Shown here piece after piece: positions 39,093-46,056 of a stretch of DNA of 64,000 bases (position 1 is the stretch's first letter; each line of letters begins with the position of its first letter). This DNA is from an uncultured Robinsoniella sp. GTDB lineage: Bacteria > Bacillota > Clostridia > Lachnospirales > Lachnospiraceae. The notes beneath the pieces are model-generated. The model saw only the letters and a list, made by a program, of their open reading frames with translations, ran no database searches and was not told the origin of the DNA. The position numbers and the translations under genes are program-made. The stretch is from NCBI GenBank assembly GCA_965150505.1, contig CBCTVZ010000001.1, positions 3,488 through 67,487 on the forward strand. The letters are read 5' to 3'.

Positions 39093-41318
39093 TCAAGAAC
39101 CGATCTGAAAAATTTCCTGTATTCTGTCGCTTAACGTAGTATATCGTTTCTGTTCAAATTCATTGTGTACCATTTGATCAAACGTGTCTGGATTTCCCAC
39201 CAAGGTTACACATTTTCTGGCTCTTGTCACTGCTGTATATAAAAGATTTCTTGTCATCAGCATTCTAGGTCCTGTCATCAATGGAATCACCACTGCCGGA
39301 TATTCGCTTCCCTGCGATTTATGTACTGTGACAGCATACGCAAGTTCCAGTTCATCGAGCTGTTTAAATCCATATTCCACAAATCGCTTTTCATCAAATT
39401 CCACGGTCATCGTCTCTGCGAACAAATTAATTTCTCTCACAATCCCCATATCTCCGTTAAAGACACCCGTTCCTTTTTCTATCGGTATGCCATAATTTCC
39501 GCGTACTTCCCATTCAATCTGATAATTGTTTTTAATCTGCATGACCTTATCGCCTTCACGAAACAGCCCATCCCCATGCTCTCTCTCCCTTTTAAACTCT
39601 GCCTTAGGATTTAAGTATTCCTGTAAAATACGATTTAAGCGTTCTACTCCAAGCAATCCTTTTCGCATCGGAGTCAAAACTTGAATGTCAAATGGATCTG
39701 CATTGACGTAGCGAGGCATCTTTTTTAAGATTAGAGTAAGCACAACACTGATAATCACATTTGCATCCTCTCTCTTTAAAAAGAAAAAATCTCTGCTTTT
39801 ATTATCCAGTATAATCTTTTCCCCTCGATTAATTTTATGCGCATTCACAATAATATCACTCTGTGTTGCCTGTCTGAAAATCTTATTTAATCGAACAACA
39901 TTCAAGCAGTTGGACTGGATCAAATCCTTTAATATACTCCCTGGGCCAACAGAAGGAAGCTGATTGATATCTCCGACAAGAACGAGCCTCGTTCCTACAA
40001 GAACTGCATTTAAAAGAGCTTTCATCAGATAAATATCTACCATAGACATTTCATCAATGATCAAAACATCTGTTTCAATCGGATCTTCTTCCCCTTTCCC
40101 AAAAATTCCTCGCTCCTGACTTTCATCAGAGATCGTTGAGACTTCCAATAGTCGGTGAATGGTCTGCGCTTCTCTTCCGGTAGCTTCTGCCATACGCTTT
40201 GCCGCTCTTCCAGTCGGCGCTGCCAGCATCACCTCGAATCCCTCCATCTCAAAGTAGTCAATCATTGCATTGATGGTGGTTGTTTTTCCTGTTCCAGGTC
40301 CTCCAGTCAAAATCAGCACACCTGTCCGCACAGCTTCCATCACCGCTTTTTTTTGCAGTTCATCCAGCACGGTATGATTTTGCTTTTCGATCTTAGCGAT
40401 CTTTTCCAGAATCTGTTCCGGTGCAATTTCCTCCGATACATTCAAATCATACAATTTCTTTGCGATCTGAAGTTCCATAAAATAATATTGGCTTCCATAT
40501 ACAATCACATCGCCTTGTTTTTCTTTTATCACAATTTTTCTCTCAATCGCAAGATCCATCAAATGTTTTTCGATCTGTTCTGTCAGTAATCCTAACAGTT
40601 CTCCGGCTCGATCCATCAAAATTTTTTTTGGCAGATACACATGACCTTCTGTCGCCGCCTGCTGAAGACAATAGGAAATCCCACATTTTATCCGATAATC
40701 AGAATCCAGATGAATCCCCACACGAGCTGCTATTTCATCTGCCATTTTAAATCCAATTCCTGCAATATCTTCCGCCATTCGATATGGATTTTCCTGTATC
40801 ACCTGATAAACGCCTTCTTTATAGCGCTGATATATTTTTGCCCCTGTCGCCGTAGAAATTCCATATTTCTGCAAAAAAACCATTGCTTTTCTCATATCAT
40901 GCTTTTCTGCCATCTGTTCTGCAATCTCTCGTGCCTTTCTCTCGCTGATTCCTTTAATCTCTGCCAACCGTTCAGGTTCTTCTTCCATAATCCGAAAGGT
41001 ATCCTGCTTAAATATTTTCACAATTCTTGATTCCAAATCTGCGCCGATCCCTTAGATCGCTCCGCTTCCAAGATATCGCTCAATCGCGCTTTCATCTTCT
41101 GGTGTTTTAATCTCCATTTTCTGAATCTTAAATTGCTTTCCATAGATGGCGTGTTCCACAAATACGCCTTCTGCCTCTATATTTTCTCCTTCGTCAATAT
41201 ACGGAATCGTTCCCACGCAGGTCAATTCTTCTCCCCCTCTGATGATCTCCATTACCGTATATCCATTCTCCTGATTCCGAAATATAATATGATCTACATA
41301 TCCTTCTATTATCTCCAT
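39093..41318 (-). pseudogene. recD2: RecD2-type SF1 helicase reading frame interrupted by a single in-frame TAA at 41054-41052
   Basis: ORFs 41052-41318 and 39093-41036 share a frame. Read through, the junction gives ...ERYLGSGAI*GIGADLESRIVKIF.... Walker A is GGPGTGKTT, Walker B is LIIDEMSMVD, and the C-terminal motif is AVTVHKSQGSEYP. Confidence 0.7.
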
Positions 41319-41433: not shown

Positions 41434-42432
41434 TCAATCTTCCATTTTATTGTTTGAAGCTGTCAATTCTACAAATCTGCCTGTTCCCATTGCAACAGCG
41501 GTCAACGGTTCTTCTGCTGTCATCGTATTGATTCCCGTCTTTTCCTCAATCAGCTCCTCTAATCCATTTAAAAGAGCCCCTCCTCCTGTCAGAACAATAC
41601 CTCGATCCGCCACATCTGCTGCAAGTTCTGGCGGTGTTCGCTCCAACACACTTCGCACAACATCTACAATCTGTGCAATCGAATCTTTCAGCGCATCTCT
41701 CGTATCTTCCGATGTCATTCTGACTGTCTTTGGAAGCCCTGTGATCACATCTCTTCCCAATACTTCCATCATTTTCTGTTCCGGTTTCTGAAATGCCGTT
41801 CCAATTCTGATCTTAATGTCCTCAGCCATCTCTTCTCCAATAATCAGGTTGTATTTTTGTTTCATATAGCGCATAATATCCTGATCAAAATTATCGCCTG
41901 CAACCTTCACGGAAGAGCTGACAACAATGCCATCCAGTGAAATCACAGCTACGTCACACGTTCCAGCGCCAATATCGACGATCATATTTCCACATGGTCT
42001 GGATGTGTCAATCCCAGATCCCATCGCCGCTGCAATCGGACCTTCAATAATGCGTACTTCTCTAGCTCCTGCCTGATATGCCGCATCTTCCACTGCTTTT
42101 TTTTCTACCTCCGTCACACTGGTCGGAACACAGATACTAATTCGAGGCTTAAAGAAAGAAATTCTTCCTGTAGCTTTCTGAATAAAATATTTCAGCATTC
42201 TCTCTGTCACTGTATAATCAGAAATGACTCCATTTTTTAACGGACGAATTGCCGCAATATTTCCAGCTGATCTGCTCAGCAAAATTCTTGCTTCTTCCCC
42301 GATTGCCTTGATTCGATTCTCTTCTCTGTCAAACGCTACCAGAGACGGCTCTTTCAAAACGACACCTTTTCCTTTTACATACACTAAAATACTTGCTGTT
42401 CCTAAATCAATTCCTATCTTTGTAGCCGCCAT
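41434..42432 (-). CDS. mreB: Rod-shape-determining actin homolog MreB/Mbl
   Basis: IGIDLGTASILVYVKGKGVVLKEPSLVA, DIGAGTCDVAV and LTGGGALLNGL. Confidence 0.93.
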   Translation of the reverse strand: MAATKIGIDLGTASILVYVKGKGVVLKEPSLVAFDREENRIKAIGEEARILLSRSAGNIAAIRPLKNGVISDYTVTERMLKYFIQKATGRISFFKPRISICVPTSVTEVEKKAVEDAAYQAGAREVRIIEGPIAAAMGSGIDTSRPCGNMIVDIGAGTCDVAVISLDGIVVSSSVKVAGDNFDQDIMRYMKQKYNLIIGEEMAEDIKIRIGTAFQKPEQKMMEVLGRDVITGLPKTVRMTSEDTRDALKDSIAQIVDVVRSVLERTPPELAADVADRGIVLTGGGALLNGLEELIEEKTGINTMTAEEPLTAVAMGTGRFVELTASNNKMED

Positions 42433-42537: not shown

Positions 42538-42624
42538 AGCTCTTTTTTCCTTTCTTCATTTCTTTTTCTTTTTTCTACCAAAATACTTTATAATTTTCAT
42601 TCTTTTTTAAGTTCAAAAACATAC

Positions 42625-42790
42625 TTTAAACACAAATTCCAGATATACTAACATCATATTAGCAAGGAGCTAATATATTTCATAACTCACACTTCGCAGC
42701 ACCCACACACTGCGAAGTAACTCCCTCAAATATTTTAATTTTTTCTCTTTCCTTTGAAAACCTCGGTAAAAATACCGGGGTTTTCTACTT
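42625..42790 (+). repeat. Copy A of a duplicated structured intergenic element with its own hairpin and U-tract; candidate small RNA gene
   Basis: A ~136-nt core (42625-42760) is ~93% identical to 42898-43034. Hairpin 1 is 42656-42676 (ATATTAGC/GCTAATAT). Hairpin 2 is 42691-42718 (ACTTCGCAG/CTGCGAAGT). The terminator-like hairpin at 42756-42785 is followed by TTTTCTACTTTT. Confidence 0.55.
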
Positions 42791-42897
42791 TTGTCTTTCT
42801 TTTTTATCCATTTTGTTCTCTGTTTTTTTATATTTTCTTTTTAAATCCCAAGAATTTCTTTTATAAACTTTAATGTTTCTTTATCTGATGTACACAT

Positions 42898-43062
42898 TTT
42901 AAACACAATTATTGGATATACTAACATCATATTAGCAGAGAGCTAATATATTTCATAACTCACACTTCGCAGCACCCACACACTGCGGAGTACTCCCTCA
43001 AATATTTTAATTTTTTTCTCTTTCCTTTGAAAAAGCCCTGACAGACCGTCAGGGTTTTTTCT
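42898..43062 (+). repeat. Copy B of the duplicated structured element; its terminal hairpin also serves as the uvrA terminator
   Basis: It has the same two hairpins; the second carries an A-to-G change that gives a U-G pair only in a plus-strand RNA. The hairpin CCCTGAC/GTCAGGG (43036-43054) has T-runs on both strands. Confidence 0.55.
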
Positions 43063-43086
43063 TTTTCTTCTTATATTTTTTCTTCT

Positions 43087-45921
43087 CTAATGGATATCCA
43101 AATATTTTTTTACATATTTTCCAGTGTAAGAGACAGGGTTTTCTGCCACCTCTTCCGGCGTTCCGCACGCAATCACCGTTCCTCCGCCGTCACCGCCTTC
43201 CGGTCCCATATCAATCAGATAATCTGCTGTTTTTATCACATCTAAATTATGTTCAATCACAACAACCGTATTTCCTCCAGAAGCTAATTTCTGTAAAATC
43301 TCAATCAATTTGTGTACATCTGCAAAATGAAGTCCCGTTGTCGGCTCATCTAAAATATAAATCGTCTTTCCTGTACTTCGTTTACTCAATTCTGTCGCCA
43401 ATTTCACTCTCTGCGCTTCTCCTCCTGACAGCATCGTAGAAGGCTGACCTAATCGAATATAAGACAATCCCACTTCATTCAATGTCTCAATTTTTCTGCG
43501 GATTGACGGCACATTTTCAAAAAAGTCCAAGGCTTCCTCCACCGTCATATTCAAAACATCGTATATATTTTTTCCTTTATACTTCACTTCCAAAGTCTCT
43601 CTATTGTATCGCTTTCCATGGCATACTTCACATGGCACATATACATCCGGCAAAAAGTGCATCTCAATCTTTAAGATTCCATCTCCACTGCACGCCTCGC
43701 ATCTGCCTCCTTTTACATTAAAGCTAAATCTTCCTTTTTTATATCCTTTTGCCTTGGCATCGGTTGTCGCTGCAAACAGATCTCGAATCAGATCAAAAAC
43801 TCCCGTATACGTCGCTGGATTTGAGCGTGGTGTTCTTCCAATCGGAGATTGGTCAATATCAATCACCTTATCAAGCTGTTCCACCCCTTCTATTGATTTA
43901 TAAGTCCCTGGAATCGTTCTGGCGCGATTTAATTTCTTTGCAAGCGCTTTATATAAAATTTCATTGACCAGAGAACTTTTTCCCGAACCGGAAACTCCCG
44001 TCACACAGGTCATCACGCCAAGCGGGATTTCTACGTCAATATTTTTCAGATTGTTCTGTTTTGCACCTTTGATTTTTAAAAATCCAGTCGGCTTTTTTCG
44101 CTCCTTTGGAACAGGAATCTTTCTCTTCCCAGACAGATATGCGCCGGTGACAGATGCTTCACATGCCATGATATTCTCCGCCGTTCCAGCCGCAACGACC
44201 TCTCCTCCATGTTCCCCTGCTCCCGGGCCGATATCCACGATATAGTCCGCCGCACGCATCGTATCTTCGTCATGCTCCACCACAATCAATGTATTTCCCA
44301 GTTCTTTCAGATTGTTCAATGTGTGAAGCAGTTTATCATTGTCTCGTTGATGCAATCCGATACTTGGCTCATCTAAAATATATGCCACTCCAACAAGCCC
44401 TGATCCGATCTGTGTCGCCAGACGGATACGCTGTGCCTCTCCTCCTGACAAAGTCCCTGTCGCTCTTGTCAAGGTCAGATAATCCAGTCCCACATTCATC
44501 AAAAATCCGATTCTTGCCCGAATCTCCTTTAAAATCTGATTTCCAATCATCTCCTGATATTCGCTTAGCTTCAATTCTGCTAAAAATTGATTCAGCTCTT
44601 TCACGGACATAGAAGTCAGCTCATAAATGTTTTTTCCTGCGATTGTAACAGCAAGCGCTTCTTTTTTTAGTCTCTGTCCCTTACACGTTTTGCACGGTGT
44701 AATCTGCATAAACGATTCATATTCCTGTTTCATCATATCGGACCCTGTCTCACGATAACGCCGTTCTACATTTTTAATCAGACCTTCAAATGCGACATCG
44801 TATACGCCCTCTCCTCTTTGTCCTTTGTAATATACCTTTACTTTTTTTCCATCTGTTCCATGAATCAAAATTTTTTGTACATTCTCAGGCAAATCCTGAT
44901 AAGGTGTATTCAGATCAAACTGATACTCTTTTGCGAGAGCATCCAGTATCGCTCTCGTAAAACTGCCCTGATCGGTACAAGACTGCCATCCGATTACTGT
45001 GATCGCTCCGTCTGCAATGCTAAGACTTTTATCTGGAATCATCAGTTCCTCATCAAATTCCATCTTATATCCCAGTCCATAACAGTCAGGACACGCTCCA
45101 AATGGATTGTTGAATGAAAAACTTCTCGGCTCAATCTCATCAATGCTGATTCCACAGTCAGGACAGGAAAAACTTTGACTAAAACGCAGCATCTCCTGAT
45201 CGATTACATCCACATATACAAGCCCCTCTGACAGCTCCATAACTTGTTCTATAGAATCTGCCAGACGTTTTTCAATTCCTTCTTTTACAATCAGGCGATC
45301 CACAACAATCTCAATATTATGTTTGATATTTTTATCCAGCTTAATCTCCTCTGTCAACTCATACAAACTTCCGTCAATCCGGACACGAACATACCCTTTT
45401 TTCTTCGCCTGATCTAACAGTTTCACATGTTCGCCTTTTCTGCCCCGCACAACAGGCGCTAAAAGCTGAATTTTTGTTCTCTCAGGCAGTTTCATAATCT
45501 GATCTACCATCTGGTCAACCGTCTGTTTACTGATCTCTCTTCCACATTTCGGGCAGTGTACGATCCCTACTCTCGCAAATAAGAGTCTGAAATAATCATA
45601 GATTTCTGTCACCGTTCCAACGGTTGATCTTGGATTTCTGTTTGTCGTTTTCTGATCTATGGAAATCGCCGGCGGAAGACCTTCTATACTCTCCACATCT
45701 GGTTTTTCCATCTGTCCTAAAAATTGTCTCGCATAGGAGGAAAGAGATTCCATATAACGCCTCTGTCCCTCCGCATAGATGGTATCAAATGCCAGCGAAG
45801 ATTTTCCTGAACCGCTTAAGCCTGTCAGAACTACAAGTTCATTTCGTGGAATTTCCACATCAATATTTTTCAGATTATGTTCATTTGCGCCTTTTATTTT
45901 GATCCATTGTTTTTCTGCCAT
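43087..45921 (-). CDS. uvrA: Excinuclease ABC subunit A
   Basis: [50 protein letters not shown] and a second ATPase module [10 protein letters not shown]. The likely start is ATG 45921, after GAGGAGG. The 28-aa K/R-rich extension in the ORF track is probably not translated. Confidence 0.95.
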
Positions 45922-46056
45922 CTCTGCCTCCTCAAGCTGTTGCTTTTTCCTGTTCTTTCTTTTATATCTGCTTTTCTGTCTCTTTTTATGCAAAACAAAA
46001 GACAATCTATCGTATTTTTCTGTTTCTTCTCGTATCTGCTTGTTCCTTGGGTTTTC

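Follow-up and report, generated by a model that had tools for sequence, protein, structure and literature searches.

The region between mreB and uvrA was examined in a 64,000-nucleotide (nt) stretch of DNA (the window) from an uncultured Robinsoniella sp. of the family Lachnospiraceae (GenBank assembly GCA_965150505.1, contig CBCTVZ010000001.1, positions 3,488 to 67,487; a metagenome-assembled genome of 212 contigs, for which metadata of the sequencing runs indicate that it came from the canine gut). Two tandem elements in this region, copies A and B, were very probably genes for structured small RNAs (sRNAs) on the plus strand, as judged from sequence comparison. Taken as a whole, the results probably describe paralogous sRNA genes of an uncatalogued Lachnospiraceae family, which would be under stress-type co-regulation and would pair with translation initiation regions. 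Each predicted RNA was composed of a hairpin (P1), the single strand UUUCAUAACUCA, a second hairpin (P2), the single strand ACUCCCUC, an AU/CU-rich tail and an intrinsic terminator. The coordinates of these parts are given in Table 1.

Tandem Copies and Their Promoters

The gap between mreB and uvrA was 654 nt long and contained a direct repeat with a period of 273 nt, in which the unit of copy A spanned 42625–42760 and that of copy B spanned 42898–43034. The two units differed by eight substitutions and two one-base indels (an extra A at 42719 in copy A, and T6 versus T7), corresponding to approximately 93% identity in alignments counted by eye; the value of 87% given by MAFFT arose from a T-run gap that the aligner had misplaced. 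The 103 nt located 5' of copy A and the 103 nt located 5' of copy B were approximately 50% identical. Alignment thus reproduced the repeat and the unconserved intervening sequence that an earlier sequence-only reading of the window, made without database searches, had described. The same reading had assigned the substitutions to loops. This was correct for the two in the P1 loop; five others preceded the RNA, in the spacer of the promoter, and one was located in the P2 stem. The latter was a change from A to G that makes a U–G pair on the plus strand only, in agreement with what had been noted for copy B. The two hairpins reported for each copy, ATATTAGC/GCTAATAT and ACTTCGCAG/CTGCGAAGT, were present in both A and B, and the GC-rich hairpin followed by a T-run on the plus strand was recovered in both copies by a terminator scan (three terminator-like sites found versus 0.3 expected). 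The pyrimidine-rich strand was retained in part: the anti-Shine–Dalgarno (anti-SD)-like ACUCCC was universal alongside UUUCAUAACUCA, whereas the long CU-rich tail was clade-specific.

The sequence-only reading had found no convincing promoter. This promoter was a conserved TATACT −10 box with a direct repeat in place of the −35 box, and the repeat is a putative response-regulator site. The repeat of copy A scored 32 with a position weight matrix (PWM) trained without the own genome, and the same layout recurred in 96 of 133 family promoters. Transcription of copy A is predicted to start at approximately 42655–42657, at the foot of P1. Promoters of the sigma-D, sigma-E, sigma-G, sigma-K or extracytoplasmic function type were considered by eye and rejected, as the spacings or the −35 elements did not fit.

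Structure and Functional Strand

The plus-strand fold of each copy consisted of P1, P2 and the terminator exactly, with z-scores of −7.5 for copy A and −7.7 for copy B, and the minimum free energy (MFE) structure took a large share of the ensemble in both. The minus-strand folds were weak (z approximately −3). A covariance model (CM) was built from 12 sequences. On the CM alignment, 97.7% of the cells were paired versus 78% in shuffles, and slid controls collapsed. Double changes were observed in 22 of 27 pairs overall and in 8 of 9 pairs of P2. An alignment guided by a CM leans towards its model, and hence the test was repeated in an alignment-free manner. A single flush P2 hairpin was present in 133 of 141 pattern matches, and the eight matches that did not have it were chance matches in other phyla. 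P2 varied widely, as its 102 different sequences contained 50 different 8-nt arms, and the hairpin was kept in all of them.

Several results bear on the strand. P2 was more stable on the plus strand in 73 cases and on the minus strand in 26 (Wilcoxon p = 8e-10), with mean energies of −18.3 and −15.4 kcal/mol, respectively. G–U pairs in P2 numbered 130 on the plus strand versus 28 on the minus strand in the alignment-free set, and on the alignment the G–U and A–C cells stood at 24 to 0. Moreover, a plus-strand terminator was located no more than 130 nt downstream in 119 of 133 members, with an A-run before it in only 22, and a terminator-like site was found on the opposite strand in 11 of 133. 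Hence, the plus strand was the functional strand. The strand and the kind of element inferred by the sequence-only reading were both borne out on more than 100 homologues. Furthermore, the P1 hairpin was formed in 123 of 125 distinct P1 segments of the family.

A Family of the Lachnospiraceae

No match at the gathering level was obtained when the whole window was scanned with cmscan against Rfam 15; the best matches by E-value were terminator-only look-alikes with 12–25 bits versus thresholds of 39.8–174.8. Three other paralog loci likewise gave no family match at E-values up to 10. The cmscan comparison that the sequence-only reading had proposed therefore matched no known Rfam family or leader, and literature searches aimed at the element returned nothing on it. 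CM matches of 95–140 bits were found in other Lachnospiraceae genera (24 of 400 sampled genera). The core pattern of the two blocks was present in 51 of 400 evenly sampled genera, and a reversed control pattern was present in approximately 14. The exact two-block pattern occurred in at least 120 records, and among the matches listed nearly all were Lachnospiraceae, including Roseburia hominis, R. zhanii, R. amylophila, Pseudobutyrivibrio ruminis, P. xylanivorans, Robinsoniella peoriensis, Marvinbryantia, Murimonas intestini and Lachnotalea glycerini. The tandem pair was present in all five other species of the genus, so that the element extended beyond the strain to five congeners and dozens of Lachnospiraceae genera, a conservation that the earlier reading had left to be checked.

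The core, from the −10 box to the CU-rich tail, was 85–100% identical among the six species, whereas the third codon positions of mreB were 48–65% identical. This difference indicates strong purifying selection. When the species were compared, two types of upstream flank (A and B) were distinguished, and hence the duplication predates the genus. The terminator stems varied among congeners with compensating changes. From the 5' end, the layout of the family was a T-rich stretch, the direct repeat (T/A)CA(C/T)A-N6-(T/A)CACA with an 11-bp period, 9 nt, and TATACT; after a further 7–9 nt followed P1, in which ATATTAGC or GTACTAGC was paired with GCTAATAT. The 3' part was composed of UUUCAUAACUCA, which was invariant in every CM match and served as the family signature, then P2, the invariant ACUCCC(C/U), a linker and the intrinsic terminator. 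The linker had a median of 28 nt and was short in Roseburia-type members. The estimated RNA length was 109–208 nt (median, 141 nt). The universal elements of the family were the two blocks that flank P2, and the P2 loop ACCC was found in this clade only. One clade (e.g., L056, L065, L079, L125, L128 and L153) had an extra hairpin of approximately 35–45 nt between ACUCCCUCAAAC and a conserved UUUUUCAACCCAAAUUUUUCUCUUUCC tail, resulting in a three-hairpin variant. Three tandem copies were located beside mreB in one genome (G419 C38:110706–111410, L028), and seven CM matches on different contigs were found in another, a 7.1-Mb genome (G141).

With regard to the genomic context, a divergent mreB lay upstream in 74 of the 117 loci that could be assessed, and a convergent uvrA lay downstream in 65 of 112. 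No co-oriented gene was located downstream of the element, and hence the element was neither a leader nor a riboswitch. The predicted mreB promoter, a consensus match at 42538–42510 where the sequence-only reading had also placed it, was outside the sRNA; that reading had remarked that the element was not obviously the mreB leader.

Further Copies in the Same Genome

A third member was found on contig C13 when sites complementary to the invariant block were sought. It carried UUUCAUAACUCC, a different P2 (GGGCUGACAG/CUGUCAGCCC) and ACUCCCUCAAAG, with the ACUCCCUC block 3' of P2; it also had a P1-like hairpin, a TATACT promoter and its own terminator. An orthologous copy was located in a congener (G005, C8:49002). 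Two further candidate loci were obtained from a scan with the promoter PWM. The candidate on C18 (score, 24), an sRNA of approximately 125 nt, contained UUUCAUAUA before a hairpin and UCCCCUCCC after it, and its terminator had a loop of seven C residues; its fold had a z-score of −7.0, and it was without an Rfam match. The candidate on C44, an sRNA of approximately 250 nt, followed a box and TATAAT and contained UUUUCAUAAUAG, a CCCCGG..CCGGGG hairpin and CACUCCUC, with a terminator located distally. In common, the copies had a strand with CAU on the 5' side of the hairpin and a strand with CUCC(C/U)C on its 3' side. With the C13, C18 and C44 loci, the pair in the window belongs to a family of at least five copies in the genome. 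Hence, the "pair of sRNA genes" of the sequence-only reading was valid as regards two paralogous genes and too narrow as regards their number, as the pair was part of a multi-copy family and of a putative regulon.

A Shared Promoter Box and a Putative Regulon

The strict box expression had seven matches in the own genome versus approximately four expected. One of them was located approximately 50 nt upstream of a protease with Trypsin_2 and PDZ domains (HtrA type). Since the enrichment in a single genome was not significant, the regulon claim was based on conservation across genera. HtrA orthologues were taken from 25 sRNA-bearing genomes of 21 genera, giving 28 loci. The strict box was located upstream of htrA in 15 of the 28 loci and a loose box in 23; the strict box lay 30–243 nt, mostly 67–118 nt, from the htrA start codon. 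Its count in reversed or reverse-complemented controls was zero, and the genomic background was 0.0005 per 330 nt. A PWM built from the promoters of other genomes gave nine matches in the own genome versus one in the reversed control. These matches were sRNA A, sRNA B, the C18 and C44 loci, two HtrA-type proteases, a CPBP (Rce1-like) protease, a regulator operon and a site on contig C136, the last of which was without a downstream open reading frame (ORF). The two HtrA-type proteases and the CPBP protease are putative members of the same regulon. It is quite likely, from the shared box, that the sRNAs have a common regulator with htrA.

The regulator operon encoded an OmpR-family response regulator of 225 aa and a histidine kinase of 520 aa, which was of the HAMP type with two transmembrane segments and without a PAS domain. 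A RelQ/YjbM-type small alarmone synthetase gene lay directly 5' of the box and overlapped it in part with its 3' end. The regulator had one-to-one orthologues in 25 of 25 genomes, with 65–98% identity, and the next-best match had at most 49%. The box preceded the regulator in 18 of 21 located cases, with 0.018 expected per locus. In NCBIfam, the regulator gave only sub-threshold matches to PhoB, YycF and MtrA, and no named equivalog was reached. We infer from the autoregulation-like placement that this regulator may bind the box.

Four ATTTTACA units, partly with 11-bp phasing, were observed upstream of pstS in the pstSCAB-phoU-phoPR operon. These units are probably Pho boxes; their geometry is like that of the sRNA box, and the half-site is different. 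PhoP was considered as a regulator of the sRNAs; the pstS TTTTACA repeats share the 11-bp phasing but not the half-site, and hence PhoP was dropped as a specific assignment.

Proposed Mechanism

An OmpR/PhoB-family response regulator, for which the one with the same box on its own operon is the candidate, would bind the direct repeat. The sRNAs, the operon of the regulator and the HtrA-type proteases would be activated together and make up a regulon for envelope or secretion stress. In the RNA, the CAU of the 5' block would pair with AUG and the ACUCCC of the 3' block with the SD sequence of target initiation regions; with P2 bulged out between the paired blocks, the RNA would keep ribosomes from binding. 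The tandem duplication may raise the dosage or permit sub-specialisation. The sequence complementary to the two blocks is GGGAGU / UGAGUU-AUG-AAA, in which an SD sequence and a start codon have 7-nt spacing when P2 is looped out. Occlusion of initiation regions was favoured for this reason, and an even chance is given to this mechanism on the basis of the block sequences. A wider proposal is tentative and carries less weight than that: a conserved Lachnospiraceae stress regulon (regulator, kinase, HtrA-type and CPBP proteases) may have as its main output a multi-copy family of split anti-initiation-region sRNAs, in which an anticodon-like CAU block and an anti-SD block, separated by P2 as a spacer, would clamp the SD sequence and start codon at a ribosome-like spacing.

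Comparison With Known Systems

The csRNAs of Streptococcus (ccnA–E) are 51–202 nt long, multi-copy and partly adjacent, with intrinsic terminators (PMC3091779, PMC4507080). The CiaR box is a hexamer-N5-hexamer direct repeat that is located approximately 10 nt from the −10 box and replaces the −35 box; htrA and five similar sRNAs, two of whose genes are adjacent, are strictly CiaR-dependent (PMC3091779, PMC4507080). The csRNAs contain unpaired anti-SD and anti-AUG sequences, and CAU was present in 53 of 61 (PMC3091779, PMC4507080). The present family resembles them in its multi-copy adjacent genes, its terminators, the geometry of the repeat, the same box at htrA, and the unpaired CAU and anti-SD sequences: UUUCAUAACUCA and ACUCCCUC were unpaired in both the MFE and the consensus folds and were separated by P2. 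However, several differences were observed. The repeat was NNCAYA/NNCACA here, whereas the CiaR repeat is (N)TTAAG-N5-TTTAAG with the same geometry; the host belongs to a clostridial family and not to Streptococcus; sequence or CM similarity was absent (no Rfam match at E-values up to 10); and the regulator matched no named NCBIfam equivalog. Moreover, the anti-AUG and anti-SD sequences were split by P2, whereas those of the csRNAs form one unpaired stretch, which is a point of layout only.

LhrC1–5 of Listeria monocytogenes are LisRK-dependent, and their UCCC motifs bind target SD regions, as UCCC motifs of Firmicute sRNAs bind SD sequences (PMC4132741). The likeness consisted in multiple, clustered copies; LhrC is tied to an envelope-stress two-component system and carries CU-rich UCCC in loops and single strands. 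LhrC has three redundant UCCC motifs (two loops and the inter-hairpin strand), whereas one was present here, in ACUCCCUC; in addition, the present family had a distinct anti-AUG block, no model match, and a different promoter element closer to the −10 box. The RsaE/RoxS sRNAs of the Bacillales are controlled by an OmpR-family regulator (ResD/SrrA). They are likewise Firmicute sRNAs with C-rich motifs that occlude the SD sequence (for the role of UCCC, see PMC4132741). However, no match to RF01820 was obtained at E-values up to 10, and the architecture, blocks, taxa and context were different. Of the generic features of a terminator-ended trans-encoded sRNA, one-strand covariation, its own promoter and terminator, and a convergent downstream gene were present. 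To our knowledge, the split anti-AUG/anti-SD clamp geometry has not been described for the csRNAs, LhrC or RsaE.

Contrary Evidence and Alternative Explanations

Several observations weigh against the reading of A and B as co-regulated, mRNA-pairing sRNAs. In four metatranscriptomes, the contigs over the element were short, undirected, of low depth and broken by the repeat, and they did not end at the predicted ends. Contigs of the Roseburia hominis type extended approximately 95–170 nt beyond the terminator; the depth at that locus was 10–15 for the sRNA versus approximately 3 for mreB in these undirected contigs. No trans target was found, as perfect 12-mers in the genome were located in the sRNA genes only. 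The best near-match to the complement of the 12-nt block was the third paralog on C13, and another was located inside a gene that we take, from a resemblance by eye only, to encode UDP-glucose dehydrogenase. Furthermore, mreB was rejected as a cognate target: the pairing of ACUCCC with the mreB initiation region was −10.2 kcal/mol for cognate pairs versus −10.1 kcal/mol for other genomes, and hence the synteny provides no evidence for mreB as a target. The own-genome htrA match, taken alone, was within chance, and the binding of the box by the regulator was deduced from their co-occurrence. P1 showed no strand asymmetry, and this hairpin, conserved in sequence, could be a recognition site for protein or in DNA.

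In one alternative, the element is a genuine plus-strand sRNA that does not pair with mRNA; the blocks and P1 would then serve as a platform for a protein (e.g., an RNA-binding regulator, an RNase or a ribosome-associated factor), which the RNA would titrate or guide. Both the 12-nt and the 6-nt block were invariant over approximately 50 genera, which is stricter than most seeds; the sequence of P1 was conserved, including a recurrent C–A/G–U arrangement; and a convincing mRNA target was lacking. Nevertheless, such a platform is considered unlikely, as the order and orientation of the anti-AUG and anti-SD blocks fit 5'-SD...AUG-3', the divergent paralogs of the same genome retained only UUUCAUA and CUCC(C/U)C as in csRNAs directed against initiation regions (PMC3091779), and no candidate partner protein was encoded nearby. 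A cis-acting positional element was given still less weight. Under that explanation, transcripts of the plus strand would oppose read-through from uvrA or long leaders of mreB as antisense RNA, and the paired terminators would insulate mreB from uvrA or regulate it through transcriptional interference. The preserved synteny with mreB and uvrA and the bidirectional terminator B, which is common to uvrA, are in its favour. However, about one third to two fifths of the members were located elsewhere, including the C13, C18 and C44 loci with their unrelated neighbours, and the predicted mreB promoter was outside the sRNA, so that the sRNA and mreB transcripts need not overlap. Insulation would also leave the invariant strands, the covariation of P2 and the shared stress-type promoter unexplained, and a cis role is decidedly improbable.

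It is more improbable again that the minus strand is the functional one, as an mreB leader or a uvrA 3' element, or that the palindromes are DNA operators for dimeric regulators. Weak promoter-like matches (TTTTCA-17-TAAAAT) were located inside each copy on that strand, and P1 was a perfect 8-bp palindrome without strand asymmetry. On the minus strand, however, P2 would hold C–A mismatches where the plus strand has G–U pairs, the terminators of most relatives were unidirectional on the plus strand, and the minus-strand folds were weak; an operator would not need near-invariance over 130 nt or a covarying, sequence-free P2. The least credible explanation is a minus-strand micropeptide translated from a split ribosome-binding site, here MKYISSLLI. 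The complement reads as a textbook SD sequence (GGGAGU) and AUG-AAA with an effective spacing of 7 nt when the hairpin is formed, and both differences between A and B in the P1 loop were synonymous in frame. Against this, the frame ranged from 2 to 68 codons over 133 members with unconserved peptides, the indels between the ATG and P1 were not multiples of three, and the minus-strand hairpin was disfavoured. The minus-strand ORFs MCGCCEV, a 13-aa TTG frame and MKYISSLLI were rejected as not conserved. Among these explanations, co-regulated plus-strand sRNAs that pair with initiation regions remained the preferred reading.

Coordinates and Neighbouring Genes

The positions of the features are listed in Table 1. 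Both sRNAs run antisense in orientation to their two neighbours, mreB and uvrA. Downstream of mreB, a long minus-strand ORF was split into parts of 88 aa (41052–41318) and 647 aa (39093–41036), with the break region at 41018–41054.

Table 1. Features of the two sRNA genes, neighbouring genes in the window and related loci on other contigs.
Feature	Position	Strand	Remarks
Copy A promoter direct repeat	42619–42634	+	ACATA 42619–42623, ACACA 42630–42634; 11-bp period; 9 nt before the −10 box
Copy A −10 box TATACT	42644–42649	+	Invariant in the genus; TATAcT conserved across the family
sRNA gene A	42655–42792	+	~135–140 nt; CM R1 165 bits; inferred ends
Copy A hairpin P1	42656–42676	+	ATATTAGC-AAGGA-GCTAATAT; double changes in 4/8 pairs
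Copy A invariant single strand	42678–42689	+	UUUCAUAACUCA; anti-AUG triplet CAU inside; unpaired in the MFE fold
Copy A hairpin P2	42691–42718	+	ACTTCGCAG-CACCCACACA-CTGCGAAGT
Copy A invariant single strand	42720–42727	+	ACUCCCUC; anti-SD-like; ACUCCC(C/U) invariant in the family
Copy A AU/CU-rich tail	42728–42755	+	AAAUAUUUUAAUUUUUUCUCUUUCCUUUG; kept in closer genera, not in Roseburia-type short forms
Copy A intrinsic terminator	42756–42794	+	GAAAACCTCGG-TAAAAATA-CCGGGGTTTTC and T-run; terminator-like site called at 42756–42785
Copy B promoter direct repeat	42892–42907	+	ACACA 42892–42896, ACACA 42903–42907; PWM score 37–38
Copy B −10 box TATACT	42917–42922	+	Predicted start ~42928–42930
sRNA gene B	42928–43066	+	~135–140 nt; CM R1 178 bits; inferred ends
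Copy B parts	P1 42929–42949; UUUCAUAACUCA 42951–42962; P2 42964–42991; ACUCCCUC 42992–42999; tail 43000–43028	+	
Copy B terminator	43029–43068	both	Plus-strand site called at 43029–43061; minus-strand reading serves convergent uvrA
mreB	41434–42432	−	Divergent neighbour, not part of the RNA; Pfam MreB_Mbl, E = 1.6e-133
uvrA	43087–46005	−	Convergent neighbour; Pfam UvrA domains
Third family member	C13:12290–12460	+	L234
Candidate sRNA	C18:17425–17640	+	L235
Candidate sRNA	C44:7446–7845	−	L238
Box-bearing HtrA-type (Trypsin_2 and PDZ) and CPBP/Rce1-like intramembrane proteases	C12:31826–33232; C17:967–2211; C32:12667–13293	−; +; −	
Regulator operon	C90:~650–1371	−	In congener G005, C4 (L233 1270–3512)
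ATTTTACA units upstream of pstS	C5:25632–25892	−	

Significance

The Lachnospiraceae are dominant butyrate-producing gut commensals, and literature searches found no sRNA regulator described for this family (Roseburia, Pseudobutyrivibrio and relatives). The present analysis yields a well-supported RNA family with a ready CM, a promoter motif that ties the sRNA family to HtrA proteases and to one highly conserved two-component system, and cultivable carriers suitable for tests of the circuit. If the wider proposal above is true, the Lachnospiraceae would have their first defined circuit based on a regulatory RNA. Streptococci and Listeria combine a stress two-component system and HtrA with multi-copy sRNAs directed against initiation regions; this combination appears to recur in Clostridia with different parts, and the recurrence suggests a convergent or very old design logic.

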